Positions 1,663 through 35,601 of a stretch of DNA of 39,537 bases are shown piece by piece. The stretch comes from a virus. The notes under the pieces are model-generated. The model saw only the letters and a program-made list of their open reading frames with translations, was not told where the DNA came from and did no database searches. The stretch lies in the UHGV virus genome UHGV-0134280, one strand, 5' to 3'. The number at the start of each line of letters is the position of its first letter. The first letter of the stretch is position 1. The position numbers were made by a program, and so were the translations under genes.

Positions 1663-1696
1663 TAAAAAACCCTCTGTAGTAACAGAGGGTTTTGTT
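1663..1696. terminator. Bidirectional rho-independent terminator
   Basis: A-run, 8-bp GC-rich stem ccctctgt/acagaggg, then T-run; sits between the convergent 1086..1625 (+) and Rz (-) genes. Confidence 0.6.
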
Positions 1697-3923: not shown

Positions 3924-3950
3924 CCCGCAAAATATTGCGGGCTTTTTTTT
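3924..3950. terminator. Hairpin cccgcaa/ttgcggg with 8-T run at the 3' end of the tailspike gene
   Basis: Stem-loop 3924-3941; the T-run is on the plus strand and overlaps the tailspike stop codon, so the transcript it terminates is unclear. Confidence 0.4.
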
Positions 3951-6900
3951 AACGTTCTTCCAGAGACTGAATCCGCTCTTTTATCTTATCCATTTCTCTG
4001 CGCTGCCATGCTGCCTCGATATAGAATAAGAGATCAGGTCTGACCCCCCATCTAGATCCTGCTGGCGTTATTTCAACGCGCTCAATGATGTCTTCCATTA
4101 CCATCACTGGATTATCATCCTCATCAACAATGATGCTCCCGTCATTATCAGTCAGCGGAATTTCCCTTTGGCCAGTAATGACGTCATCATATACTGCGGG
4201 ATAATCGTCATAGCAAAGAAAGGCATAGCGGCATGTTGTGCTTTCTTCTTCCATGAGTCCGTGAGAAATAAGAACATCACGAAGTTGCTGCGCGATTACA
4301 CCATGATGTATCCTCGCCCCTTCTTCTCCCTTTATAGCGACAGCGTTCAGCCATTTATAAGCGATATACCTGACGTCACCCCAGGCATCCAGCAATGCTT
4401 CGTCAGGAGAGACCGGCTCTGTCTTTAATGTTCCGTCACTGGTAACCACAGGATTGGAGCCAAGATAAACTGTCGAGAACCTGTTTCCCGGACCACCAAG
4501 AGCATTTACATTATCAAGATAAGGTTTAACATCTCCGTTCTCAAAAAGATGTTCGAGTGCGTTATATACCGCGCGACGTGGAGTACTGCTTCCGGAACCA
4601 TGCAACGTTATCATTGCACCATCTGCTGAAGACGTTGTTTCACCGCCGCTAACGATTAATCTCTGAGCGGTAACATCATCAGACGGTACTTTCTTCGCAA
4701 TAATGGCGTAATTGCCCTCCAGTTTGACTTCCGCGCGAACTTGTCCTGATGTACCTGCATGGACAGTCAGTGACTGGACGGCAACATCATCTGTGAAATC
4801 AACGGGTACAGGAACCGTCCTCACGCCGGACGTCGACATAAAAGTAGGAAGCGTTCTGTTAGGAGTGGCTCCGTAGACAAAATCCCTTGAAACAAATTCT
4901 TCCTGTTTAATTTTCACCCTGAAACAATACAAATCAGCCGGGTGACCATCGTGAACATAAGGATATTTTCTGTTGTTATCCCCTATGCTCCATGGGTTTA
5001 GAAAGTCTTCCCCACCGAAAATGTAGTACAGCCAGTTGTCTTTGATACAAACTGAACCAACACCAACCGCAGAGTTAACTATTCCGCCCTGATAAATCTG
5101 ATCAGTAACATTAACCCACTCTACATTATCCAGACTCCACTCATTGACGTTAACTCTGGTCATAAATGTTCTTGGATAATTTCCTGCATAACGATTATCA
5201 GGTTCCCCTCCTTCCCACTCACCAAATGCGCGCTCACTGCCAAAAATAACCAGCTCATCGCCAACTTTGGCAAAAGGAAGGTTTGAGTGATGAACATTAT
5301 TTGGGAAGCGAAGAGAATTCCATGATGCACCTAAATCAGAGCTTCTGTGCAATGAACTACCAGGTTGAGTACTTAATGTCCCCCTGGTCGTCAGATACAG
5401 AATGCCATCATAATATTTTACACATGGCTCAGATGCATTCGCCTCATATTCTGCAGGTATGCGTCTGCGAACAAAGCTACCAGGAGAACCGAAAGCATCA
5501 GAGAAATAGAGTATCCCAAGCTCGCGTGGACCAATATCACCATTATGGTAGCCAACAGCAAAACTGTTATCGCTAATCGTCGCAAAACTGTGAATCTCAG
5601 TAACAGGAGTGCTTCCGTCAACAAAAGAAGGAATAGTTCCAAGACTGGTTTTTCTCCATGGTGACGAGTGAAATGATGTACCAAAACTCCAGTATCTACC
5701 CTCGTTATTCTGATCCACATCCTGAGTATTTTGCGTCGTAACTGTAAAAGTATTTTTATCAATAACAGTAGTCACCGTCATATTCCCGGTAACACCTGTA
5801 ACACCAGAGTTTGAGAAGTTGACAAAATCACCAGCAAATAATCCGTGATCAGTAATGCGAATATAAGCGACTTGCTGATTTGCTGCTTTCGTTATACCAC
5901 CATAAACGCGAAGGCTGCGACTCATTGGACGATCCCACAACTCTGCAACCTGCAGTTTATTTCCGCTCACGGTCCGCGTCTCAATTACAGCAAAAAGGCG
6001 ATTTCTGACAACCCCCATACTCATGCAGTGATAGTTAACTGTGGGATAGTTTTCATGTAAATCTGTAAGCCATTCCGGCGTTGTCCAGGTCTTCCCGTCA
6101 TCTCCTGAGCGAACCCATGCAACATGGAGGTTATTTACACCATGGCGGTCTCCAGCCATAAAAGGCGCATAGATGACATTGTCATATACAAACGTTTTAT
6201 CCTGCGTCCAGGCGTTGTACCACGGTGTATCTGTAATTTTAAATAACTCTCCCTGGATAAAATCTTCAGAAGCATAAAAAAGAGGCTGACCCGGTATTCT
6301 CTCAAATAAAAAACGAGCATTTTTAAATCGGCTGACATCCGGAAGAGTTGATACTTTAAAAGTAAGCCCTAATCCGTCAATTTTATAACCTGGAGATGAG
6401 GCTTCAAGGCACGCGCTTATTGCAGTGGAATCGTCATTTATACCATCACCAACAGCTCCAAAATCTTTGGGGCTAATAGCATCACGCATTTTATCCTGGA
6501 ACGTTCGGTATACTGCCCCAGAACCATACTGAATAAACCAACCAAAACCACCAACAACCCCGGCGATTGCAGCATCGACATAATTACGCATTGAGCGATT
6601 ATTTACAGCGTCCTGTTCAAGTGATGGATCTGCAAGGTTAGAAATTCTGTTTTGCTTTGCATCGTAATATTTTGCAAGCAAAGATGGTTTCATCAATGCA
6701 CGTCTGAACCATCCAAAACATTGCTGGATCAGCATCGTCAGGTAGTCAAAGGCATCTTCATGCACTTCGGGGAAAAACTTTCCCTGATTGCGAAGGTCTG
6801 TCTCCTGCACTACATCAAGCACACGATCTATCGTAATTCGCCAGCCAGCAGCAAGCGGCGACGGAAGAACAACAGAACCGCCACTATAAGTGCCCGCCCC

Positions 6901-7068
6901 AGTTACCGTATAACCGGTATCCAGAACCAATTCTGTTACGTTCCCGTTCAGGTCAGACACCTGAACAACCAGGTCGGATTTTTTGAAAATACGGAAGGTA
7001 TACGGAAATGATGTCGTAGCGCCGTTACCGGTGTATTCGTTGTGGTCAACTTCGGTTGAGACCGTCAT
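3949..7068 (-). CDS. Tailspike/tail fibre: T7 gp17-like N-terminal anchor, sialidase-type beta-propeller with Asp-boxes, C-terminal intramolecular chaperone (peptidase S74-like)
   Basis: N-terminal pattern resembles the T7 fibre anchor; Asp-boxes SGDDGKTW and SSDLGASW; C-terminal about 160 aa carries SDGTLK...YKW...GVIAQQL typical of auto-cleaving chaperone domains. Confidence 0.75.
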   Translation of the reverse strand: MTVSTEVDHNEYTGNGATTSFPYTFRIFKKSDLVVQVSDLNGNVTELVLDTGYTVTGAGTYSGGSVVLPSPLAAGWRITIDRVLDVVQETDLRNQGKFFPEVHEDAFDYLTMLIQQCFGWFRRALMKPSLLAKYYDAKQNRISNLADPSLEQDAVNNRSMRNYVDAAIAGVVGGFGWFIQYGSGAVYRTFQDKMRDAISPKDFGAVGDGINDDSTAISACLEASSPGYKIDGLGLTFKVSTLPDVSRFKNARFLFERIPGQPLFYASEDFIQGELFKITDTPWYNAWTQDKTFVYDNVIYAPFMAGDRHGVNNLHVAWVRSGDDGKTWTTPEWLTDLHENYPTVNYHCMSMGVVRNRLFAVIETRTVSGNKLQVAELWDRPMSRSLRVYGGITKAANQQVAYIRITDHGLFAGDFVNFSNSGVTGVTGNMTVTTVIDKNTFTVTTQNTQDVDQNNEGRYWSFGTSFHSSPWRKTSLGTIPSFVDGSTPVTEIHSFATISDNSFAVGYHNGDIGPRELGILYFSDAFGSPGSFVRRRIPAEYEANASEPCVKYYDGILYLTTRGTLSTQPGSSLHRSSDLGASWNSLRFPNNVHHSNLPFAKVGDELVIFGSERAFGEWEGGEPDNRYAGNYPRTFMTRVNVNEWSLDNVEWVNVTDQIYQGGIVNSAVGVGSVCIKDNWLYYIFGGEDFLNPWSIGDNNRKYPYVHDGHPADLYCFRVKIKQEEFVSRDFVYGATPNRTLPTFMSTSGVRTVPVPVDFTDDVAVQSLTVHAGTSGQVRAEVKLEGNYAIIAKKVPSDDVTAQRLIVSGGETTSSADGAMITLHGSGSSTPRRAVYNALEHLFENGDVKPYLDNVNALGGPGNRFSTVYLGSNPVVTSDGTLKTEPVSPDEALLDAWGDVRYIAYKWLNAVAIKGEEGARIHHGVIAQQLRDVLISHGLMEEESTTCRYAFLCYDDYPAVYDDVITGQREIPLTDNDGSIIVDEDDNPVMVMEDIIERVEITPAGSRWGVRPDLLFYIEAAWQRREMDKIKERIQSLEER

Positions 7069-7171: not shown

Positions 7172-7188
7172 ATTACCTTTCAGGTAAT
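7172..7188. promoter_or_regulatory. 17-bp palindrome ATTACC-TTTCA-GGTAAT (site A, perfect)
   Basis: Read directly; in the divergent region between tailspike and the KilAC gene; an extra half-site ATTACCT lies at 7122-7128. Confidence 0.6.
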
Positions 7189-7263: not shown

Positions 7264-7521
7264 ATGCAGCAGTATCACTATCCACTGGAAGACGGATTTA
7301 CCGAAAGGATTCACACGCCGGGAGGCGTCAGGTCACTGGTGGAGGGATCGCACTTGATGAAATTACTCCGGGATCTCAATAAGGATGGATTTAATGTCGA
7401 TGGCCCACTTGCCGAACTGACTGCACTGATTAACTACGTCACCAGCTCACAGATGTCTATGCAGGATCTGCAAACACATCTCGACTATTGTGCCGAACAA
7501 TTACGAAAACAAACCAGGTAA
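7264..7521 (+). CDS. Small KilAC/ANT C-terminal-domain protein (candidate SOS-controlled antirepressor)
   Basis: 86 aa from MQQYHY with GGAGAAG RBS; paralogous to the C-terminal domain of the Bro-N protein at 8668..9360. Confidence 0.55.
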   Translation: MQQYHYPLEDGFTERIHTPGGVRSLVEGSHLMKLLRDLNKDGFNVDGPLAELTALINYVTSSQMSMQDLQTHLDYCAEQLRKQTR

Positions 7522-7527
7522 ATTTAA

Positions 7528-7552
7528 AGGCCGCAAGAGCGGCCTATCGTTT
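7528..7552. terminator. Hairpin ggccgc-aaga-gcggcc between convergent genes
   Basis: 6-bp GC stem right after the stop at 7521, overlapping the stop of the minus gene; weak T-tract. Confidence 0.4.
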
Positions 7553-8272
7553 CGCTTTGTGCTCGTCCCAGCACGTTTTGCACCATGCCATTAAGCCGTC
7601 CGCATTTTGATTATTAGGGTAAAAGCTGGTTCGTTTTCTGCGGACATTACAAATTGGGCACCACTTCATATGACGTGTATTCTTTGGGCCATCGAGACAC
7701 CTTGCACACCACTTAGTCAATCCATCCGGATTTTTTGACGATTTCCTGAATTTTTCATATGGAAGGTTTATTCTGCATCGCAAGCACTGCTTGCTACCGC
7801 TTGAAACTCTGTTAGCTGATTCTTCTTTTGGCGGCGATACAGAAGATATTCTTGCTGGCTCTGATACTGCCTGAGGTGCTTTTTTAAATGACTGAGACGA
7901 TATGTCATCACCAGGGAATCTTCCATGATATGCCGGACGCGTTGACACTCCAGGTGGAAGCTCAGCTGTAAACGGCTTTGGCTGAATCAGTTGCCTCTCT
8001 TTTGCTAACTCCTGCTGTTTATAATATGTCTGGATTACCGCACTATCATAAGCATGAGGTACGGAAATATCAGGAGCGTTACCTCCAGTTTTTTGAAACT
8101 GAGTAGATGTGTGCTCTATCACCTGTGTACGATTAATCGTTATCTCCCCATCTTCGGTCTTTATCGTTTTGTTCTGATTAACGACCGTACGATCAGAGAT
8201 CTTAGTCTTGTTCTGGTTGATAACGTAAATAATCACCGCAACCACACCAACAACTATCCAGAAAACTTCCAT
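7544..8272 (-). CDS. N-terminally membrane-anchored protein with two C-terminal zinc-ribbon repeats, function unknown
   Basis: TM helix at residues 4-20; duplicated C-x2-C...DGL..WC..C modules in a basic C-terminal domain; GAGGAAAA RBS. Confidence 0.5.
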   Translation of the reverse strand: MEVFWIVVGVVAVIIYVINQNKTKISDRTVVNQNKTIKTEDGEITINRTQVIEHTSTQFQKTGGNAPDISVPHAYDSAVIQTYYKQQELAKERQLIQPKPFTAELPPGVSTRPAYHGRFPGDDISSQSFKKAPQAVSEPARISSVSPPKEESANRVSSGSKQCLRCRINLPYEKFRKSSKNPDGLTKWCARCLDGPKNTRHMKWCPICNVRRKRTSFYPNNQNADGLMAWCKTCWDEHKAKR

Positions 8273-8291
8273 TGCTTTTCCTCACAATAAC

Positions 8292-8308
8292 ATTACCTTA
8301 AAGGTAAT
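8292..8308. promoter_or_regulatory. 17-bp palindrome ATTACC-TTAAA-GGTAAT (site B, perfect)
   Basis: Read directly; immediately upstream of the RBS of the 7544..8272 gene. Confidence 0.6.
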
Positions 8309-8384
8309 ATCTTGCTTTCAGGTGATCAAGCGTTAAACGCAATCAACCAAATACGGTTGATTTTAATGTTTTTTCGCGCTTATC

Positions 8385-8401
8385 ATTACCTTTTCGGTAA
8401 A
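8385..8401. promoter_or_regulatory. 17-bp palindrome ATTACC-TTTTC-GGTAAa (site C)
   Basis: Read directly; one mismatch in the right half; inside the structured 8273-8667 intergenic region. Confidence 0.5.
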
Positions 8402-8667
8402 TTTACATCGCACTCCTCTTGTGCCATAGTAATCGGGCACTGGCAAAATCCAGTGCCGGGATTGGTCTCCCGGATTACTACAGAGGCACATATGCCGCAT
8501 AAGCGGTTTTTTTATGTGTAAAGCGCACCTATTCTATGGTGGGCTGTGTGGGGGCACCGAAAGGTGCGCCGGGTTCCTTTGTAGCCGGTAAGACCAACTC
8601 TGCACAGTTCACCACCATCTGATTGGTCTCAGCGGTGGTGATTAACCTAACTACAAAGGTGATCGCC

Positions 8668-9360
8668 ATGAATACCAAACCTTCCATCTTTTCCTTTGAG
8701 TCATCCTGCCAGATCCGTATGTTCATGATTGACGGAGAACCTTGGTTTGTCACCAAAGATGTGTGCAATGCTTTGAATATTGATGTTACACAAGCGAGAA
8801 AACTTGATAAAAAAGGCTGGAACAAAAAGGGGCTGCATTCAATACAGACCCCTGGTGGAATACAAGAACTATCCATCGTTTCAGAATCAGGTCTCTACAT
8901 CCTTATTCTGCGTTGCAAAGAGGCAATGACAGAGGGAACGAGAGCATTCAGATTTCTTGAATGGGTTACAGGTGAGGTTCTTCCTCAGATCCGCCGCACC
9001 GGAAGCTACATTAAAAACTCGCTCCCGCAGGAAGAACGCATAAAGATGGTTGCCGACCAGGTTGCCAACGCCACGGCGTCAGCAGTGATGCAGGCAATGA
9101 AGATAGAGAACAAAACCTACAGCGCCCCACTGAAGCCCGGCTACCGCAGTCTGATTCACTCGCCGTCTGGTGTTCTCGGCCTGACGGAGAACTCACTGCT
9201 GATGAATCTGCTGAACCAGTTACAGGAAGACGGGCACGACGTATCGGGCGCGGCGGCGGAGCTGACCACCATGTTCTGCTACATCGTCGGTGTGAGCAAA
9301 TGCCTGCGTGATATCGAGACCCACGCGGAGTACATCAACGATAAAGCAGGATTTTTCTGA
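8668..9360 (+). CDS. Ant-like antirepressor (Bro-N domain plus KilAC/ANT C-terminal domain)
   Basis: N-terminal pattern IRMFMIDGEPWFVTKDVCNAL typical of Bro-N; C-terminal domain paralogous to 7264..7521; start trimmed to MNTKP. Confidence 0.7.
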   Translation: MNTKPSIFSFESSCQIRMFMIDGEPWFVTKDVCNALNIDVTQARKLDKKGWNKKGLHSIQTPGGIQELSIVSESGLYILILRCKEAMTEGTRAFRFLEWVTGEVLPQIRRTGSYIKNSLPQEERIKMVADQVANATASAVMQAMKIENKTYSAPLKPGYRSLIHSPSGVLGLTENSLLMNLLNQLQEDGHDVSGAAAELTTMFCYIVGVSKCLRDIETHAEYINDKAGFF

Positions 9361-9628: not shown

Positions 9629-9648
9629 AAGCACATTAGGAGTTTGTC

Positions 9649-10089
9649 TTGAAGTTTAACATTAGAATATCTAATAGTTTTCTAAATGGGGAAAGCAACA
9701 CCCCTTTCGCTGTAGACGGACCTTTCCTTACTGACGATGAAATAAAAATCATACAAAGGTTTTTAGAAGATGTTGCCAATGGAAGGGCGCTTGTTGGAAA
9801 AAACAAGCCATCGTGGGTTGATGATAACCATGATAAAATTCCCGGCTCAGACAATTATGAGCAAGAGAATTATTGGCATTATCATTGTGGGCCAACATGG
9901 TATCCAAACACATTTAAGAATTATACCATTAACTTAAATTTCAACCCCGGCGGAATGCATTCTAATGAATGCATTCATTATGCAAAAAATGATAATGAAA
10001 TTGTCGTTGTTGGATTTTCAAGAGAACACATACCTTTCCTTTCATCAGATGGAAACGACAATCCGCTTTTTTATGATGAAGAAGAATAG
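9649..10089 (+). CDS. Moron protein of unknown function in an AT-rich segment
   Basis: TTG start with AGGAG RBS 7 nt upstream; base composition visibly lower in GC than flanking virion genes; strong terminator downstream; no recognisable motifs. Confidence 0.5.
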   Translation: MKFNIRISNSFLNGESNTPFAVDGPFLTDDEIKIIQRFLEDVANGRALVGKNKPSWVDDNHDKIPGSDNYEQENYWHYHCGPTWYPNTFKNYTINLNFNPGGMHSNECIHYAKNDNEIVVVGFSREHIPFLSSDGNDNPLFYDEEE

Positions 10090-10343: not shown

Positions 10344-12818
10344 TTATTGCGGAGTGACATCCTGTGGTCGCCACCAGTATGTCTGGTTAAACTCTTTCTT
10401 CGAACGTTGCTCCATTTTACGCAAATAACCTGGTGAAAAATACTCCTGCATCTGGTTAAAGATCATGTGATCGAGAGCCGCCTTCAAGTACCAGAGATTC
10501 GCACCTGGCATCAGACCTTTCCCCAGCTTAACCAGATCACCACCAGTCTGCTCACTCTTCCCTTCCACAGCATTTAACGGTATGCCCTGAGCAATCTTCA
10601 CTACGTCATCAACCAGACCAGCTACCGGGCCAAGCATCGACGCCAGCGCGCCGCTTCCGTACCTAGTGTGATCTGACAATAAAAAGTCACCGTAAAGGCC
10701 AAGACCACCACCTTTCAGTAGAGCACCAAGCCAAAATTTAGCAGCATCTTCTCCTGTCATCTCGCGAGGATTACGACCAGACGCAAGGTCGTTAAGTTGC
10801 TGCGACAAAGCGCCAAGAATGGTCGTACTGGCAATAAACGTCGCAATATATGCCGCACGCCCACCAGCAGACGGCATACCCATAGCGCGTGACCAGTGAC
10901 GCATAACCACCGAGATAGGGAACGATTTAAACAGGAAAACACTTCTCGTTAATTCACCTTTCCATGTTCCACGCTGAATACCAGAACCGGTTATCAGTTG
11001 CTCACGTGCTCCCGGTGTAATAACAGCCATATCAACTTCTTCAGTTATGGCACCGAGCAGTTTACGCATTGCCTCAAATTTCACGCGTTCAGGCTCACCA
11101 AGATGTTTAACTGCTGAATCAGGGATACGCATAATGCTTTCCGGTGTCAGCATCGTATTATTGCCGTTCCCCCAGTCCTCCTGTTGCGCCAGCTTCCATA
11201 CGCTCCAGTCTGTGTCAGTAATCCCTTTGCTTTTCAGGATGCGAAAATCAGAATCATCGAGGCTACGAAGGTCTGGTGTCCGTGACACTACTTCTCCCAA
11301 GCTTCCCATCATGGTTACGCCATAGGCGCGCTTGTGCGCATCTGACCATGCTGTAAGCCCACTGGCACGCATTACCGCCGTTGCAGCCCAACGAGACACA
11401 GACGGCCCCATATTATCCATCGCCCAGCGGTTAACGCTGCCAAGTAGAGATTCCATCGCCAGACCAGCGCGGCGCGCCCGCGCAAGTTCTGTACGGTTCG
11501 TTGGGTCCATAGCTTCAAGCTGGTTGCGGAATAACTGGTTCATTGGAAGGTTGGTCACCTTCGCAGACAGATACATGGTTCCAAGATCAGAGAACGATGA
11601 CAGCAACGCGGATCCGAGTCTGCTGGCAACCAGCCAGTTGCGGATATTGTCAGACCATCGCGCGATGTGCGGATTCGCTACAGGCTGTGTCTTTCCGGAA
11701 ATAAAGTTGTACAGATTCTCTGTGTTGTTCGCCAGCCGCTCGACTTTACCGGTTTTACTCGGGTTAGCTGTTGCCGTTTCTGCCTTCACCTGATCAAGAA
11801 GAGAGCGGAAAACATGATCGGGGTTTGGGCCATATGTTTCCACCAGTGCAATATCTTTACTGATACCTTCCAGGTGACCGACCATGATTTCCCATAGAGA
11901 GCGATCGCCATAAAGTTGCTGATATTGCAGATAGGAATCTGCATCTTTGAAATGTATCTGTCGTGATGTATTACCACGGTTAGCACGTGCGCCTGAAATT
12001 CGCATTCCGGTATCAGTAAGCTTATTCAGCCCACCAGTAGCGATCGTGTTATAAGCCTCTCCAAGAAATGCAGACAACTCGGAATCGTTCATCAGTTGTC
12101 CATCGGCTCGGATATAATATTTGCGATCCAGCTTACCTATAACATCGCTAACCCACTTATCCTTTGATACCGCCCCAACCTTTTCCATAGAATGATGTTG
12201 AGGGATTCCCCAGTTTTCGAGATAGCCAATGTCCCCACCAGCATCATTAAACCGGCGGCGCAGTAGATCTGTCACTTCTCTCCACGCCTTAGCACCTTTT
12301 CTTGCTTTAGCATTGCCAGTATTTTGCCCTCGCATTTCATATACCAGGTCACGCACGCCAGCTTCATCTTCAAACAGGCCAAAAAAGCGAGGATCAACTG
12401 CTTCAAATGCCTCTTGCAATTGACTCAATGCATAATCACGAGTGGCTTTTGTTCTGGACTCAACAGAGAGGAAATTCGATTTACCGTCTGCATTAAAAGC
12501 AATAGTACGGTTAAGAGCGCCAAGTTTCCCATCAGCCCCTTGATAGCTATTGATAAATTTATCCAATCTCTGACGTGCGGATATAGTGAGGGCCACACGA
12601 CGTTTCTTTAATGCCGCTTCTCGCTGTAATTCTTCAGATGCCAATTGTGCTGCACGATATAGCCGCTCTGATTCGGAAAGTTGTCTCCACGACATCGGGT
12701 CATCACGAGCAATGGAGCGCATATTTCGATAAATGCGGTCTTCAATGTTCTGTATTTCTCGCGCCGTTAACGTGCGCTGCGCCGCCTGCTGGACCGCTTG
12801 TATACATTCCTGTCTCAT
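10344..12818 (-). CDS. Internal virion/ejection protein (T7 gp16-like, C-terminal part)
   Basis: 824 aa; called by size and position in the gp13-gp16-like block upstream of the tailspike. Confidence 0.5.
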   Translation of the reverse strand: MRQECIQAVQQAAQRTLTAREIQNIEDRIYRNMRSIARDDPMSWRQLSESERLYRAAQLASEELQREAALKKRRVALTISARQRLDKFINSYQGADGKLGALNRTIAFNADGKSNFLSVESRTKATRDYALSQLQEAFEAVDPRFFGLFEDEAGVRDLVYEMRGQNTGNAKARKGAKAWREVTDLLRRRFNDAGGDIGYLENWGIPQHHSMEKVGAVSKDKWVSDVIGKLDRKYYIRADGQLMNDSELSAFLGEAYNTIATGGLNKLTDTGMRISGARANRGNTSRQIHFKDADSYLQYQQLYGDRSLWEIMVGHLEGISKDIALVETYGPNPDHVFRSLLDQVKAETATANPSKTGKVERLANNTENLYNFISGKTQPVANPHIARWSDNIRNWLVASRLGSALLSSFSDLGTMYLSAKVTNLPMNQLFRNQLEAMDPTNRTELARARRAGLAMESLLGSVNRWAMDNMGPSVSRWAATAVMRASGLTAWSDAHKRAYGVTMMGSLGEVVSRTPDLRSLDDSDFRILKSKGITDTDWSVWKLAQQEDWGNGNNTMLTPESIMRIPDSAVKHLGEPERVKFEAMRKLLGAITEEVDMAVITPGAREQLITGSGIQRGTWKGELTRSVFLFKSFPISVVMRHWSRAMGMPSAGGRAAYIATFIASTTILGALSQQLNDLASGRNPREMTGEDAAKFWLGALLKGGGLGLYGDFLLSDHTRYGSGALASMLGPVAGLVDDVVKIAQGIPLNAVEGKSEQTGGDLVKLGKGLMPGANLWYLKAALDHMIFNQMQEYFSPGYLRKMEQRSKKEFNQTYWWRPQDVTPQ

Positions 12819-20623: not shown

Positions 20624-21228
20624 CAGGACAACCTCGCAATGGTAAACTCATCAACAGGTGGCTGTGGTTCCTGTGATTCATTCTGGCTATGCGAGCCAGC
20701 ACTAAGAATCACGCGATTGTACATATTGAGGGCAAACGTACCGAGGTCTGCATTCCCAGTCAGCGCCATGTTAATAGCTGCCGCAAGACGCCAGGCCAGC
20801 GCCTCCATAAAAATGGCATCAAACATGTTCACATCTGTAACGCGAGAGACATACTTGAGCCATGCCTGCGGCTGGTCTGTGTAGATCAACTTTCCTGTTC
20901 CGTTGGTGTCTGCACCAACTTCGTACTGAACGCGCATTGCCGCTGTTGGATTGCGTACACCAGGAAGCATAATTTCAGTAATGCGCAGACAATCGGACGG
21001 GTACTGGTACGCATATTCCCAGTCAGGCGGTGGATTGCTCGTATCTGCAAGCGCCACGCGTTTGGTAGCAAAGTTCCAGTCAAAATCAGAAAGCACAGCA
21101 TCACGGCAGGCCTCAAAGTGCAGCGAACATTCCCCCGCTTCCTTGCTGGCTTCCGTCAGGCTGTTAATACTGCGGCTGTTGCCAATATTGGACAGCGCAC
21201 GATTGCAGATCTCTACTACAGAGGCCAT
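20623..21228 (-). CDS. Tail tubular protein A / head-tail adaptor (gp11-like)
   Basis: 201 aa between capsid genes and the nozzle gene; size matches T7 gp11. Confidence 0.45.
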   Translation of the reverse strand: MASVVEICNRALSNIGNSRSINSLTEASKEAGECSLHFEACRDAVLSDFDWNFATKRVALADTSNPPPDWEYAYQYPSDCLRITEIMLPGVRNPTAAMRVQYEVGADTNGTGKLIYTDQPQAWLKYVSRVTDVNMFDAIFMEALAWRLAAAINMALTGNADLGTFALNMYNRVILSAGSHSQNESQEPQPPVDEFTIARLS

Positions 21229-26439: not shown

Positions 26440-26516
26440 GTGGCATTAGCTCAGCTGGACAGAGCAACCGCCTTCTAAGCGGTTGGTCGCAGGTTCGAAT
26501 CCTGCATGCCACGCCA
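26440..26516 (+). tRNA. tRNA-Arg (anticodon UCU)
   Basis: Cloverleaf folded by hand: 7-bp acceptor stem GTGGCAT/ATGCCAC, D-arm, anticodon loop CTTCTAA, T-loop TTCGAAT, discriminator G and encoded CCA. Confidence 0.85.
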
Positions 26517-34586: not shown

Positions 34587-34610
34587 GAAAAGACCGCCGG
34601 ATGGCGGTCT
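34587..34610 (-). terminator. Terminator hairpin agaccgcc/ggcggtct after the Cro-like gene (tR1-like position)
   Basis: 8-bp GC stem with 4-nt loop, followed on the minus transcript by UUUUC. Confidence 0.5.
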
Positions 34611-34631
34611 ACAGAGGGTTGTGGATGGATA

Positions 34632-34862: not shown

Positions 34863-34906
34863 AGCTATTGCCTGATATTTATTTCAGATAATAAATATTC
34901 ACCCAT

Positions 34907-34961
34907 AAGGTAACAAAAATCAAGGATAGTTACCTATGAGGTGCATTTACCTGTTGGGTAA
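34907..34961. promoter_or_regulatory. Operator array in the divergent immunity region (overlapping TTACC/GGTAA sites K and L plus a half-site)
   Basis: AGGTAAC at 34907-34913, TTACC-TATGA-GGTgc at 34929-34945, TTACC-TGTTG-GGTAAT at 34945-34961; between the Cro-like start (34862) and repressor start (35017). Confidence 0.55.
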
Positions 34962-35016: not shown

Positions 35017-35601
35017 ATGAAAAGTATCCAGGACGTCCGCAGGCAAAATCTCAACGACTTGATCGACCGTGAATTCAATGGTGTTCAGACGCGGATGGCA
35101 GAAAAACTTGGAACTCAGGCAAATCTGGTAAACCGCTGGGCTCTTGGCAAGAAGGTTATCGGCGACCAGGTTGCGCGAAAAATTGAAGCTGCCGCCAATA
35201 AACCCCGTAACTGGCTTGATATCGATCGCTCGCTTTCTCAGGAAGGTTTTCAGCCTGTCGGCCCAAGCGACATTGGTCAGCTGGCGGCTCACAACCTGGA
35301 ACGCTGGATGAGCGAAAGCCGCGACCTTTCAACACAGGGAAAACTTCACCGCGCATCCGGCGTCGCCCAGGTAACAATCAGCCGCCTGTTAAACAATGAG
35401 GTCAGCGTTTCCATTTCCACCCTGGAGAATGTTGCATCCGCATTCGGGCGTCACGGCTATGAATTACTGATTCACCCGCACGACCCTGCGACCATCAACT
35501 ATGACCGCTCGCGCTACGCATTGTTACCCGAAACCGAGAAAGCAAAGATCGAAAGTTACATTGAATTTGTCATCAACCAGAACGAAAAAAATAAACAATA
35601 A
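35017..35601 (+). CDS. Immunity repressor candidate with two XRE-type HTH domains and no S24 peptidase domain
   Basis: HTH-like segments around residues 20-55 and 105-150; no LexA-like Ser/Lys autocleavage module seen; no obvious RBS (possibly leaderless). Confidence 0.65.
   Translation: MKSIQDVRRQNLNDLIDREFNGVQTRMAEKLGTQANLVNRWALGKKVIGDQVARKIEAAANKPRNWLDIDRSLSQEGFQPVGPSDIGQLAAHNLERWMSESRDLSTQGKLHRASGVAQVTISRLLNNEVSVSISTLENVASAFGRHGYELLIHPHDPATINYDRSRYALLPETEKAKIESYIEFVINQNEKNKQ

Follow-up and report, generated by a model that had tools for sequence, protein, structure and literature searches.

The window, meaning the whole 39,537-nt stretch of viral DNA analysed here (UHGV virus genome UHGV-0134280), is the K1-endosialidase podovirus prophage of E. 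coli VR50. Between a minus-strand gene (7544–8272) and a plus-strand Ant-like gene (8668–9360) lies a 395-bp gap, and the locus adjoins the tailspike gene. Both flanking genes have coordinates that agree with those called by RefSeq for E. coli VR50, and the module described below is unannotated there. Many E. coli genomes contain an identical or nearly identical region, and 47 records match it at 99% or more. Homology with other phages begins at about 8378, and the module is one that passes between phages as a cassette. In sequence order it consists of an operator, a promoter, the a1 and b1 sites (inside IsrK), C4, the a2 and b2 sites and the gene start. Together with a second operator copy outside the module, the features are:

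8292–8308, no strand: operator copy 1, ATTACCTTAAAGGTAAT, a perfect 8+1+8 palindrome and perfect TTACC-N5-GGTAA site
8385–8401, no strand: operator copy 2, ATTACCTTTTCGGTAAA, an imperfect palindrome with both TTACC-N5-GGTAA half-sites intact
8402–8430, plus strand: PisrK, a sigma-70 promoter-like site from the promoter scan, with −35 TTTACA (8402–8407) and extended −10 TGc-CATAGT (8422–8430)
8437–8513, plus strand: IsrK-type small RNA, 77 nt (Rfam RF01394, 74.7 bits against a gathering score of 50)
8462–8468, plus strand: a1 site (UUGGUCU), in the loop of IsrK hairpin 2, identical to a2 and complementary to a' of C4
8478–8486, plus strand: b1 site (CUACAGAGG), in the IsrK linker, pairing with b' of C4 with one G-U
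8494–8513, plus strand: IsrK intrinsic terminator, 5-bp stem GCCGC/GCGGU, loop AUAA, U7
8532–8619, plus strand: C4 antisense RNA (Rfam RF01695, 78.6 bits against a gathering score of 45)
8576–8584, plus strand: b' (CCUUUGUAG), loop of C4 hairpin 2, antisense to b2 and b1
8591–8597, plus strand: a' (AGACCAA), single-stranded junction of C4, antisense to a2 and a1
8623–8629, plus strand: a2 target site (UUGGUCU), 4 nt past the Rfam C4 match
8651–8659, plus strand: b2 target site (CUACAAAGG), overlapping the Shine-Dalgarno AAGGUGA (8656–8662) of the Ant-like gene
8668–9360, plus strand: Ant-like gene, the predicted object of regulation, encoding a 230-aa Bro-N/Ant-family antirepressor-like protein

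An earlier sequence-only reading of the gap had proposed a small RNA or regulatory leader that adds an RNA layer of control over the Ant-like gene, and two plus-strand RNA genes are indeed present. Both kinds of RNA, IsrK and C4 antisense RNA, are already catalogued, and the layer of control is a known one. Most of the individual features listed in that reading lie where it placed them; one terminator and one stem lack support from conservation.

Two structured RNAs and their putative promoter

The isrK match is full length (model positions 1–77 of 77), and the minimum-energy fold is the family structure: hairpin 1 (8437–8456), hairpin 2 (8457–8472), a single-stranded linker and the intrinsic terminator. 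Two GC-rich stems noticed earlier are real parts of this RNA, with ggcactgg/ccagtgcc (8436–8443 with 8450–8457) forming hairpin 1 and ccggga/tcccgg (8456–8461 with 8468–8473) forming hairpin 2. Compensatory changes were found at all seven pairs of hairpin 1 and at four of the five pairs of hairpin 2 (11/12 together). The hairpin with T-run at 8494–8513 had also been recognized correctly, and it ends IsrK. This terminator is weak, and read-through is therefore expected. The terminator plus U-tail is the only visible feature typical of Hfq-bound RNAs.

The a1 and a2 words sit within a 10-nt direct repeat, GATTGGTCTC, at 8460–8469 and 8621–8630. Further 9-mers resembling b1 occur at 1671, 21216 and 34609, and we took these as chance because an a site lies beside none of them. 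Overlapping isrK at 8424–8476 is a match to the c4-a1b1 motif (Rfam RF03163, 39.9 bits, E 1.2e-8) that falls below the gathering score of 46.7, compared with 50.1 bits in a Stx phage locus and 51.0 bits in P1; the a1 and b1 words are present despite the sub-threshold score. The P1 region also matches isrK weakly (35 bits), including a hairpin plus U-run.

The C4 match likewise spans its model (positions 1–87 of 87), and its minimum-energy fold reproduces the family structure, a 17-bp closing stem around two hairpins. Folding had been suggested as a check of the RNA proposal, and it favored the plus strand: C4 alone reached −43.6 kcal/mol (z = −4.5) on the plus strand versus −32 kcal/mol (z = −2.1) on the minus strand, a difference due to G-U pairs. 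Across homologues, the closing stem is 99.9% paired with five compensatory pairs, and stem and hairpins overall are 98–100% paired, with compensatory changes at 5/5 pairs of hairpin 1 and 3/5 of hairpin 2. Mature C4 is predicted to extend over approximately 8538–8616, by analogy with the ends annotated for P1 c4. A previously listed gcgcacc/ggtgcgc stem (8523–8530 with 8562–8569) is present as a repeat, but conservation does not support it as a functional stem. Its formation is at the expense of the conserved C4 hairpin gcacc/ggtgc (8554–8558 with 8563–8567), and the spacer containing its 5' arm shows no conservation in homologues; we conclude that this pairing is probably not the functional one.

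Over 8437–8690 the plus strand folds with z = −5.0, a level that none of 200 shuffles equalled. On the minus strand the fold of the region likewise surpassed that of shuffled sequence (z = −8.5), as will the reverse complement of any structured RNA. The promoter scan returned no promoter-like site on the minus strand in 8437–8667, and the search for the sar family was negative both across the whole window at the family's gathering score and within 8200–8800 at E up to 1. A lysM-TM7 match on the minus strand (19 bits, E 0.5) was regarded as noise. Upstream of the module, the second hairpin-plus-T-run element that had been listed, at 8341–8380, exists, but its role as a terminator is unsupported. 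Its hairpin (8341–8362, with a T-rich tail) has eight pairs, three of them G-C, at −10.2 kcal/mol (z = −2.4), and in TL-2011b, the only homologue covering 8341–8380, other bases stand in place of the T-run and the stem differs at its base.

Both 17-bp palindromes reported earlier were recovered, although the second copy is imperfect. We rejected them as RNA elements and regard them as protein operators, two of ten perfect TTACC-N5-GGTAA sites in the window (14 with one mismatch allowed, versus 0.68 expected). These sites are dispersed over the prophage and clustered round an HTH repressor gene (35017–35601) and its flanking promoters, and their positions suggest that the product of this gene may bind the operator. 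Copy 1 precedes the start of the minus-strand gene at 7544–8272 by 20 nt, is kept in TL-2011b, and is part of that gene's control region, outside the RNA module. Copy 2 abuts the −35 hexamer of the isrK promoter and is presumably the binding site of the prophage's main repressor. In four related Uetakevirus-type loci the same motif, with varying central bases, immediately precedes TTTACA, and phiV10 has a TTACC-N6-GGTAA variant in a different flanking sequence.

The position of PisrK, with a 17-nt spacer between its −35 and extended −10 elements, would place the transcript start at about 8437. Three bases of the −10 hexamer (A, A and T at 8426, 8428 and 8430) are nearly invariant among 99 homologues and lie 7 nt before the isrK 5' end. 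The only plus-strand promoter-like sites before 8668 are 8357–8386 and 8402–8430, which adjoin the operator at 8385–8401. From 8430 to 8668 the scan found none on the plus strand, including the interval between the isrK terminator and 8668. Neither C4 nor the Ant-like gene has a predicted promoter of its own, and both would be transcribed by read-through from PisrK.

The Ant-like protein matches Pfam Bro-N (9.9e-14) and PHROG 130 'anti-repressor Ant' (2.8e-50), and its intact reading frame is named a BRO-N domain protein in RefSeq. In the related phage vB_EcoP_ZX5, over-expression of the Bro-N protein ORF4 lowers lysogeny (PMC9782041); this gene is annotated beside a homologous RNA module. The start codon occupies 8668–8670, and its U and G are invariant alignment columns in the 99 homologues, with the A nearly so, despite differing downstream genes. 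Upstream, the a2 site is able to occupy the loop of a hairpin formed by 8610–8616 (CACCACC) and 8634–8640 (GGUGGUG). Both of its arms have changed in step in P1 and Moraxella Mcat4, whereas in our anchor-selected set they are invariant, which makes that set uninformative about their co-variation.

Complementarity and co-variation of C4 with two target copies

The exposed loops of C4 are complementary to the ribosome-binding region of the gene at 8668, in line with the RNA layer proposed earlier. Segment b' forms an exact 9-nt inverted repeat with b2 (8576–8584 with 8651–8659) over the Shine-Dalgarno, and a' is complementary both to a2 and to a1 in the loop of IsrK hairpin 2. Loop-to-target duplexes were predicted at −16.1 and −9.5 kcal/mol, and among 1000 trials with shuffled loops, 43 and 204, respectively, were as strong. 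No gain came from cofolding of C4 and either the leader or IsrK, because short loop-loop (kissing) contacts are outside its model. The case for RNA pairing rests on co-variation, and the thermodynamics of the single sequence are unremarkable.

We assembled 107 unique homologous modules from IMG/VR and GenBank phages and counted exact complements of at least 7 nt in cognate and non-cognate pairs. This count was alignment-free because MAFFT columns blur the b helices, where differences in loop length yielded column-based values of 59–74% paired. Segment a' had its complement in a2 in 107/107 modules and in a1 in 98/107, versus 14% of non-cognate a pairs. For b', the complement was present in b2 in 89/107 and in b1 in 78/107, versus 8.7% of non-cognate b pairs. 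The modules contain approximately 51 different (a,b) codes, and the a and b words assort independently. In the aligned columns, the a':a2 helix is 99.4% paired and the a1:a' helix 97.5% paired (99 sequences), each with compensatory changes at five of seven pairs, such that a1, a' and a2 co-vary three ways across homologues. Covariance was another check suggested for the proposed RNA, and it was borne out for the structure as a whole, which is 95.7% paired with 26/44 pairs compensatory in 99 homologues. None of 500 shuffles reached this level, and slid controls reached at most 44%.

Gene order is constant. The window and each of the 11 annotated phage loci that we examined have isrK, C4 and a gene start in this order, and in those loci C4 follows isrK by about 18–25 nt. 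The downstream gene in these 11 loci is of Bro-N/Ant type in at least eight and encodes a hypothetical protein in the rest.

A proposed RNA switch and its alternatives

Taken together, we put at roughly 80% the probability that 8385–8667 is a P1 immI-type RNA switch that holds the prophage antirepressor silent. The model system is P1 c4 together with Gifsy-1 IsrK, rather than P22 sar. Both the direction and the size of the regulatory effects in this phage are predictions from sequence. Transcription would start at about 8437 from the sigma-70 promoter at 8402–8430, which adjoins an operator (8385–8401) for the main repressor. Many transcripts would end at the weak terminator at 8494–8513, yielding the 77-nt IsrK with a1 and b1, and those reading through would carry C4 (approximately 8538–8616) followed by the Ant-like leader with a2 and b2. 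By analogy with P1 and P7, C4 is probably excised by RNase P and other nucleases. Its two exposed segments would then pair with the leader, b' with b2 on the Shine-Dalgarno and a' with a2, keeping ribosomes off so that leaky or early transcripts yield no antirepressor. IsrK bears the leader's two words and may compete for C4. By analogy with Gifsy-1 IsrK, an excess of the short RNA would titrate C4 and allow the antirepressor to be translated.

Experiments on Gifsy-1 bear on this proposal. Read-through from PisrK past the homologous terminator has been demonstrated, and IsrK supplied in trans raises antirepressor translation 139-fold (PMC4825925). This effect depends on pairing with the region that we identify here as C4. 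However, when a1 is mutated in cis, basal translation of the antirepressor increases (PMC4825925, Table 1D), an outcome that a purely decoy role for IsrK does not predict. The a1 and b1 sites may also serve C4 as a target in cis, allowing it to exert feedback on read-through.

We considered whether C4 might act mainly on transcription, with translational block secondary, as in P4 CI-type attenuation. Pairing of nascent a1/b1 would favor the IsrK terminator, and pairing of a2/b2 would favor termination before the Ant-like gene. Such a mechanism accounts for the cis a1 mutations, and Biere, Citron and Schuster are said to have found in 1992 that the translational block by P1 c4 itself leads to Rho-dependent termination. 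The layout equals that of P4 seqA, CI (seqB) and seqC, a resemblance noted by the Gifsy-1 authors, and over-production of Gifsy-1 IsrK raises a transcriptional fusion 8-fold (PMC4825925). Nevertheless, the translational effect in the same system is far larger (139-fold), IsrK alone has no predicted alternative anti-terminator fold, and b2 always lies on the Shine-Dalgarno at a fixed distance from the invariant start-codon column, which points to ribosome occlusion. Attenuation as the main mode of action has some chance of being correct but is unlikely.

The Gifsy-1 authors explained their results with a small open reading frame and two alternative folds, without a C4 repressor (PMC4825925). 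Applied to the window, the equivalent of 'orf45' would be 8536–8622 (28 codons), its translation coupled to that of the Ant-like gene, with IsrK acting in trans to open a fold that hides the frame's ribosome-binding site. Mutating the orf45 start or introducing an early stop cuts IsrK activation from 114-fold to 8–23-fold, and native gels show two Gifsy-1 conformers (PMC4825925). The start AUG of the frame is invariant across all homologues, an invariance that is explained by its position in the conserved 5' arm of the C4 stem. From this AUG, however, the length of the open stretch varies between 3 and more than 51 codons among the 99 homologues, in differing frames and with unrelated peptides, and we rejected it as a conserved coding gene. 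Coupling is also unlikely in the window because the frame stops 45 nt before the ant start codon. Moreover, the region fits the C4 RNA family with structural co-variation, and a stable processed RNA (STnc1160) has been reported from its Salmonella counterpart. Hence, we consider the small-frame explanation improbable here.

As prophages decay and this module is exchanged as a cassette, it could also be mosaic DNA that this prophage has inherited and in which any regulatory function has been lost. This is very improbable given that every element is intact, the pieces still match (b' with b2, and a' with a2 and a1, all exactly), scores are as high as in functional phages, the region is kept in the 47 near-identical E. 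coli records, and the downstream reading frame is intact.

The chance of P22-type control, with a minus-strand sar-like antisense RNA over the ant leader and Arc/Mnt-like repressors on the palindromes, is close to negligible: the adjoining tailspike gene, the resemblance of the palindromes to the P22 Mnt operator and the folding of the minus strand would suit it, but both RNA family matches are on the plus strand, where C4 folds much better, the palindrome is one of ten dispersed sites centered on the immunity region rather than a local Mnt-type operator, and neither a sar match nor a minus-strand promoter was found. The P22 analogy drawn in the sequence-only reading accordingly fails, as sar is a cis-antisense RNA from the opposite strand whereas the RNA here lies on the same strand as its target and, like P1/P7 c4 and Gifsy-1 IsrK, is predicted to be co-transcribed with it and to work in trans.

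Related immunity systems and a possible pairing code

The closest published counterpart is immI of P1 and P7, in which c4 with a1, b1, a2 and b2 controls icd-ant (Citron and Schuster 1990; NC_005856). P1 shares with the window the order of operator, promoter(s), a1, b1, hairpin plus U-run, C4, a2, b2 on a ribosome-binding site, and gene. Spacings are similar: 14 nt in P1 versus 16 nt in the window between a1 and b1, 29 versus 28 nt between a2 and b2, and 11 versus 9 nt from the end of b2 to the ATG. The two loci are also alike in the C4 RNA family and fold, in having RNA and target on the same strand (with co-transcription predicted here), and in an antirepressor product. They differ in that b2 of the window lies on the Ant-like gene's own ribosome-binding site, with no icd-like leader gene, and in that its Bro-N type protein is unrelated to P1 Ant1/2. 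The operator of the window is palindromic and predicted to serve an HTH_3-type repressor, whereas the P1 C1 site is asymmetric. The a and b words differ as well, implying a different immunity specificity. Finally, P1 is a plasmid prophage and the window an integrated epsilon15/phiV10-like podovirus.

Salmonella Gifsy-1, with IsrK, orf45 (STnc1160) and AnrP (Hershko-Shalev et al. 2016, PMC4825925), has an isrK-family RNA as in the window, a leaky terminator (weak here), a conserved structured region with which the short RNA pairs, and an antirepressor gene. Numbering on close homologues such as our locus L019 suggests that its mutant positions G28/G31 and C159/C162 fall in a1 (UUGGCGU) and a' (ACGCCAA). 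In the published model the C4-like region is a 45-codon coding frame coupled to anrP, as against a non-conserved 28-codon frame in the window, and the Gifsy-1 cascade to the AntQ antiterminator has no visible counterpart next to the window locus.

In P4 immunity, a processed small RNA, CI (seqB), lies between two target copies, seqA and seqC, on one transcript, and the upstream copy is in a structured leader, as in the window. The Gifsy-1 authors cited CI as a structural homologue of IsrK (PMC4825925). P4 CI differs in acting by premature transcription termination on replication genes, with no antirepressor, whereas the window matches the C4 family. P22 immI (sar, Arc, Mnt, Ant) resembles the window in RNA and repressor control of an antirepressor gene beside a tailspike gene, but sar is read from the opposite strand over the ant ribosome-binding site. 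Rouil et al. (2020, PMC7313666; LR794147) annotated an isrK-C4 tandem upstream of a Bro-N gene in the APSE phages of Hamiltonella defensa and marked putative a' and b' segments in it. The APSE a and b words differ from those of the window (GUCUCAA and CCUUGUUAG), and the authors drew no link between isrK and a1/b1 sites (PMC7313666).

For this locus, the result chiefly concerns annotation: the 395-bp gap stands empty, or is filled with spurious open reading frames, in RefSeq and in most phage records, while by analogy its two RNA genes probably decide antirepressor synthesis and hence prophage silence. More broadly, in our survey isrK and C4 always travel together, isrK contains the a1/b1 target copies of c4 systems, and the Gifsy-1 'orf45' region is a C4 RNA. 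One module thereby joins three literatures, those of P1 c4, P4 CI and Salmonella IsrK.

Tentatively, and at well below even odds, we suggest that IsrK is the long-unexplained a1/b1 element of c4 systems generally, a separately terminated anti-antisense RNA, and that the a and b words together make up a combinatorial code for RNA-based immunity. If so, phages sharing a code, whether co-resident or incoming, could silence each other's antirepressor through C4 or activate it through IsrK, and phages with different codes would ignore each other. The window code (AGACCAA / CCUUUGUAG) is common to Enterobacter phage Tyrion and a Klebsiella prophage, so that cross-talk between genera would be possible under such a code; that of phiV10 is ACGCCAA/CCUUUUAG. 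The module displays dozens of pairing specificities, and approximately 9% of complete E. coli genomes carry it.

isrK and C4 RNAs upstream of the Ant-like gene

The 395-bp gap at 8273-8667 separates a minus-strand gene (7544-8272) from the plus-strand Ant-like (Bro-N) gene (8668-9360), and RefSeq has the same flanking gene calls for E. coli VR50. An Rfam search of the whole window at gathering thresholds returned three matches: isrK, C4 antisense RNA and, outside the gap, tRNA-Arg. The first two occupy the right-hand two thirds of the gap, and the family consensus structure is the minimum-energy fold of each when folded alone. The sequence-only reading, which proposed RNA-based control of the Ant-like gene, was right in that both RNAs are matched here. 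Its description of the gap as highly structured agrees with a fold z of -5.0 relative to shuffled sequence for the plus strand at 8437-8690. Pairing words were found by direct reading and a repeat search.

Elements of the RNA module (window positions, strand, description)
8402-8430, +: promoter-like site PisrK (TTTACA, 17 nt, TGc-CATAGT), from a promoter scan
8437-8513, +: isrK (RF01394), full length, 74.7 bits against a gathering score of 50
8478-8486, +: b1 CUACAGAGG, isrK linker, near copy of b2
8532-8619, +: C4 antisense RNA (RF01695), full length, 78.6 bits against a gathering score of 45
8576-8584, +: b' CCUUUGUAG, loop of C4 hairpin 2
8591-8597, +: a' AGACCAA, single-stranded C4 junction
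8623-8629, +: a2 UUGGUCU, complement of a', directly 3' of C4
8651-8659, +: b2 CUACAAAGG, exact complement of b'

Two stems noted earlier, ggcactgg/ccagtgcc and ccggga/tcccgg, are present as isrK hairpins 1 and 2. A third, gcgcacc/ggtgcgc, exists as a repeat and is probably not functional, its 5' part lying in a non-conserved spacer and its partner being one arm of a conserved C4 hairpin. Two hairpin-plus-T-run elements had also been proposed: the one at 8494-8513 is the isrK terminator, and the one at 8341-8380 (hairpin 8341-8362) is weaker. Homology with other phages starts at ~8378, which makes 8273-8377 a mosaic piece of its own; the weaker element falls within it and lacks conservation in the one phage that shares the piece, TL-2011b.

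Pairing words and their co-variation

C4 carries two antisense segments, a' and b', with targets a2 and b2 in the ant leader and upstream target copies a1 and b1. The b2 word overlaps the Shine-Dalgarno sequence AAGGUGA, 5 nt ahead of the ATG at 8668, and the 10-nt word GAUUGGUCUC, which contains a2, is found again at 8460-8469, where it contains a1, within the hairpin 2 loop of isrK. The six words correspond to those named a', b', a2, b2, a1 and b1 in phage P1. The annotated P1 immI order is operator Oc4, promoters, a1, b1, c4, a2, b2 and icd start, and spacings are nearly equal in P1 and the window: 14 and 16 nt from a1 to b1, 29 and 28 nt from a2 to b2, and 11 and 9 nt from the end of b2 to the ATG, respectively. 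The P1 a1b1 stretch matches the Rfam model c4-a1b1 (51 bits) and, weakly, isrK (35 bits, taking in a hairpin and then a U-run); isrK and 'c4-a1b1' are therefore one element. On the window, the c4-a1b1 model scored 39.9 bits, under its threshold.

Single-sequence thermodynamics was non-discriminating for the C4/target contacts, so the argument rests on co-variation. In all 11 annotated phage loci examined (APSE-7, APSE-2, phiV10, TL-2011b, Tyrion, two Klebsiella prophages, Hafnia yong2, Moraxella Mcat4, a Yersinia phage and an Stx phage), isrK is followed by C4 18-25 nt on and then by a gene start; at least eight of these genes are annotated as antirepressor or Bro-N and the others as hypothetical proteins. 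Searching IMG/VR with the two conserved C4 stem arms gave 120 loci, which combined with the annotated phages yielded 107 unique modules. Counted without alignment, perfect complementarity over 7 nt or more was present in 107/107 modules for a':a2, 98 for a':a1, 89 for b':b2 (102 at 6 nt or more) and 78 for b':b1, compared to 14% (a) and 8.7% (b) of non-cognate C4/target pairs. These modules hold 51 distinct (a,b) combinations, with a and b assorting independently.

In a 99-sequence alignment, the intramolecular structure was 95.7% paired and 26 of 44 pairs had changed on both sides; none of 500 shuffles equaled this and slid controls reached at most 44%. The a':a2 and a1:a' helices were 99.4% and 97.5% paired, each with 5/7 pairs compensatory, while the column-based count for the b helices is blurred by loop-length differences. 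The start-codon U and G are invariant columns and the A is nearly so. Covariation across relatives, proposed earlier as a check, bears out the RNA layer: the intramolecular structure and the a helices are kept with compensatory changes across the 99 aligned sequences.

A nearly invariant GGUGGUGA 3' of a2 (8634-8640) is able to pair with the C4 stem 3' arm (8610-8616), which would place a2 in a hairpin loop, like a1 within IsrK. The arms co-change in P1 (CCUGCCACC/GGUAGCAGG) and Moraxella Mcat4 (CUACCACC/GGUGGUAG), and this hairpin may represent another fold of the transcript before processing. IMG/VR contig 2671181028_000005 has two complete isrK-C4 modules (9640-9920 and 10952-11232) 1.3 kb apart, with different a/b codes (GTTCCAA/TCCGTATGC and CTGCGAA/TCCTTGATCG) and an ATG-initiated reading frame after each. 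At another homologous locus (L016, 1177-1456), isrK hairpin 1 is present in exactly inverted form, with GCACTGGATTTTGCCAGTGC in place of GCACTGGCAAAATCCAGTGC, and its loop GCAAAAUC, conserved elsewhere, is flipped. The b1-like 9-mer CTACAGAGG has six matches in the window against 0.45 expected; three lie outside the module, at 1671-1679 (-), 21216-21224 (+) and 34609-34617 (+), none with an a-type site beside it, and the last overlaps the terminator of a cro-like gene on the opposite strand.

Transcription and candidate operators

The predicted start from PisrK, ~8437, coincides with the isrK 5' end, and in 99 homologues the PisrK -10 hexamer hardly varies at its key positions. The isrK terminator is weak, with a 5-bp stem. 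The promoter scan found no further plus-strand promoter-like site between PisrK and 8668, which would leave C4 and the Ant-like gene dependent on read-through of this terminator.

The palindromes noted earlier are present, perfect over 17 bp at 8292-8308 and imperfect at 8385-8401. We ruled them out as RNA features, as they are dispersed TTACC-N5-GGTAA sites with constant arms and a variable central 5 nt. The window holds 10 perfect sites, and 14 with one mismatch allowed, versus 0.68 expected.

Perfect TTACC-N5-GGTAA sites (window positions, description)
7173, 8293, 8386, 9434, 26103, 29263, 32616, 34947, 35659, 35721: from a motif count

Next to an HTH_3 repressor-like gene (35017-35601), sites bracket a strong promoter (35659/35721) and also occur at 34899-34961, between divergent genes. 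We infer from this arrangement that the prophage's main repressor uses them as operators. The ten sites, spread over the whole prophage as a dispersed repressor regulon, recall the scattered P1 C1 operators. Candidate operator 8385-8401 abuts the PisrK -35 hexamer, much as Oc4 overlaps the c4 promoter in P1, and operator 8292-8308 belongs to the divergent gene 7544-8272. In the interval bounded by the tailspike gene and an 824-aa phage-protein gene (10344-12818), four perfect sites precede the small genes.

Probable antirepressor control and prophage context

A P1-type mechanism, in which C4 blocks ant translation and IsrK competes for C4, is the most likely reading of these sequences (probability roughly 0.8). 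The C4 mechanism is textbook knowledge for P1, and RNase P excision is established for P1/P7 c4. By analogy, C4 would be produced from read-through transcripts, probably excised by RNase P, and would occlude the ant ribosome-binding site by pairing b' with b2 and a' with a2. The short IsrK, bearing the same words as the leader, would compete for C4, such that excess IsrK would turn the antirepressor on. The repressor operator would be an added transcriptional lock.

IsrK was previously studied in Salmonella Gifsy-1, where supplying it in trans raised antirepressor translation 139-fold and transcription 8-fold, and IsrK G28/G31 and downstream C159/C162 mutations act as a base-paired helix (PMC4825925). 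Numbered on close homologues, these positions would fall on a1 (UUGGCGU) and a' (ACGCCAA). In the same study, a1 mutations in cis increased basal expression (PMC4825925), a misfit with a pure decoy role. This rise would be accommodated if a1/b1 were also a cis target where C4 limits read-through, as P4 CI RNA does on seqA, a refinement or rival that we consider improbable.

The Gifsy-1 stretch that we assign to C4 was published as orf45, an ORF of 45 codons coupled to the antirepressor, and a stable processed RNA, STnc1160, was reported from this region (PMC4825925). The orf45 start AUG is the invariant AUGG of the C4 stem 5' arm. Among homologues, the ORF from this AUG spans 3 to >51 codons in differing frames (28 codons in the window, stopping 45 nt ahead of ant), and we rejected orf45 as a conserved coding gene because of this variation.

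The isrK-C4 tandem upstream of a Bro-N gene was already annotated in APSE phages of Hamiltonella defensa (PMC7313666). In the related Uetakevirus vB_EcoP_ZX5, the homologous RNA module adjoins an annotated Bro-N ORF, which behaves as an antirepressor (PMC9782041). None of the open-access papers found equates IsrK with the a1/b1 element or 'orf45' with C4 RNA. A prophage of E. coli VR50, in which RefSeq annotates no RNA at the locus, matches the window at 100% identity, and matches occur in 482 of 5426 complete E. coli genomes.

Other genes of this epsilon15/phiV10-like (Uetakevirus-type) prophage surround the module. The divergent gene 7544-8272 (-), with its own operator in front, encodes a 242-aa protein (PHROG 6762) that has a membrane anchor at its N-terminus and, at its C-terminus, two Cys-rich repeats resembling endonuclease VII/Stc1 zinc ribbons. 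An 85-aa gene (7264-7521, +), homologous to phiV10 p24/epsilon15 gp19 and with its own operator upstream (7173-7187), encodes a stand-alone paralogue of the Ant-like protein's C-terminal domain (41% identity to residues 149-222, E 2e-15; PHROG 450 for both), which could modulate or mimic the antirepressor. The tRNA-Arg gene (anticodon TCT; 26440-26516, +) lies inside the prophage, with operator site 26103 320 nt upstream. The tailspike gene (3949-7068, -) encodes a complete K1 endosialidase (N-terminal extension, beta-propeller, beta-barrel, tail-spike domain and S74 chaperone), from which a K1-capsule-specific temperate podovirus is predicted in E. coli VR50.
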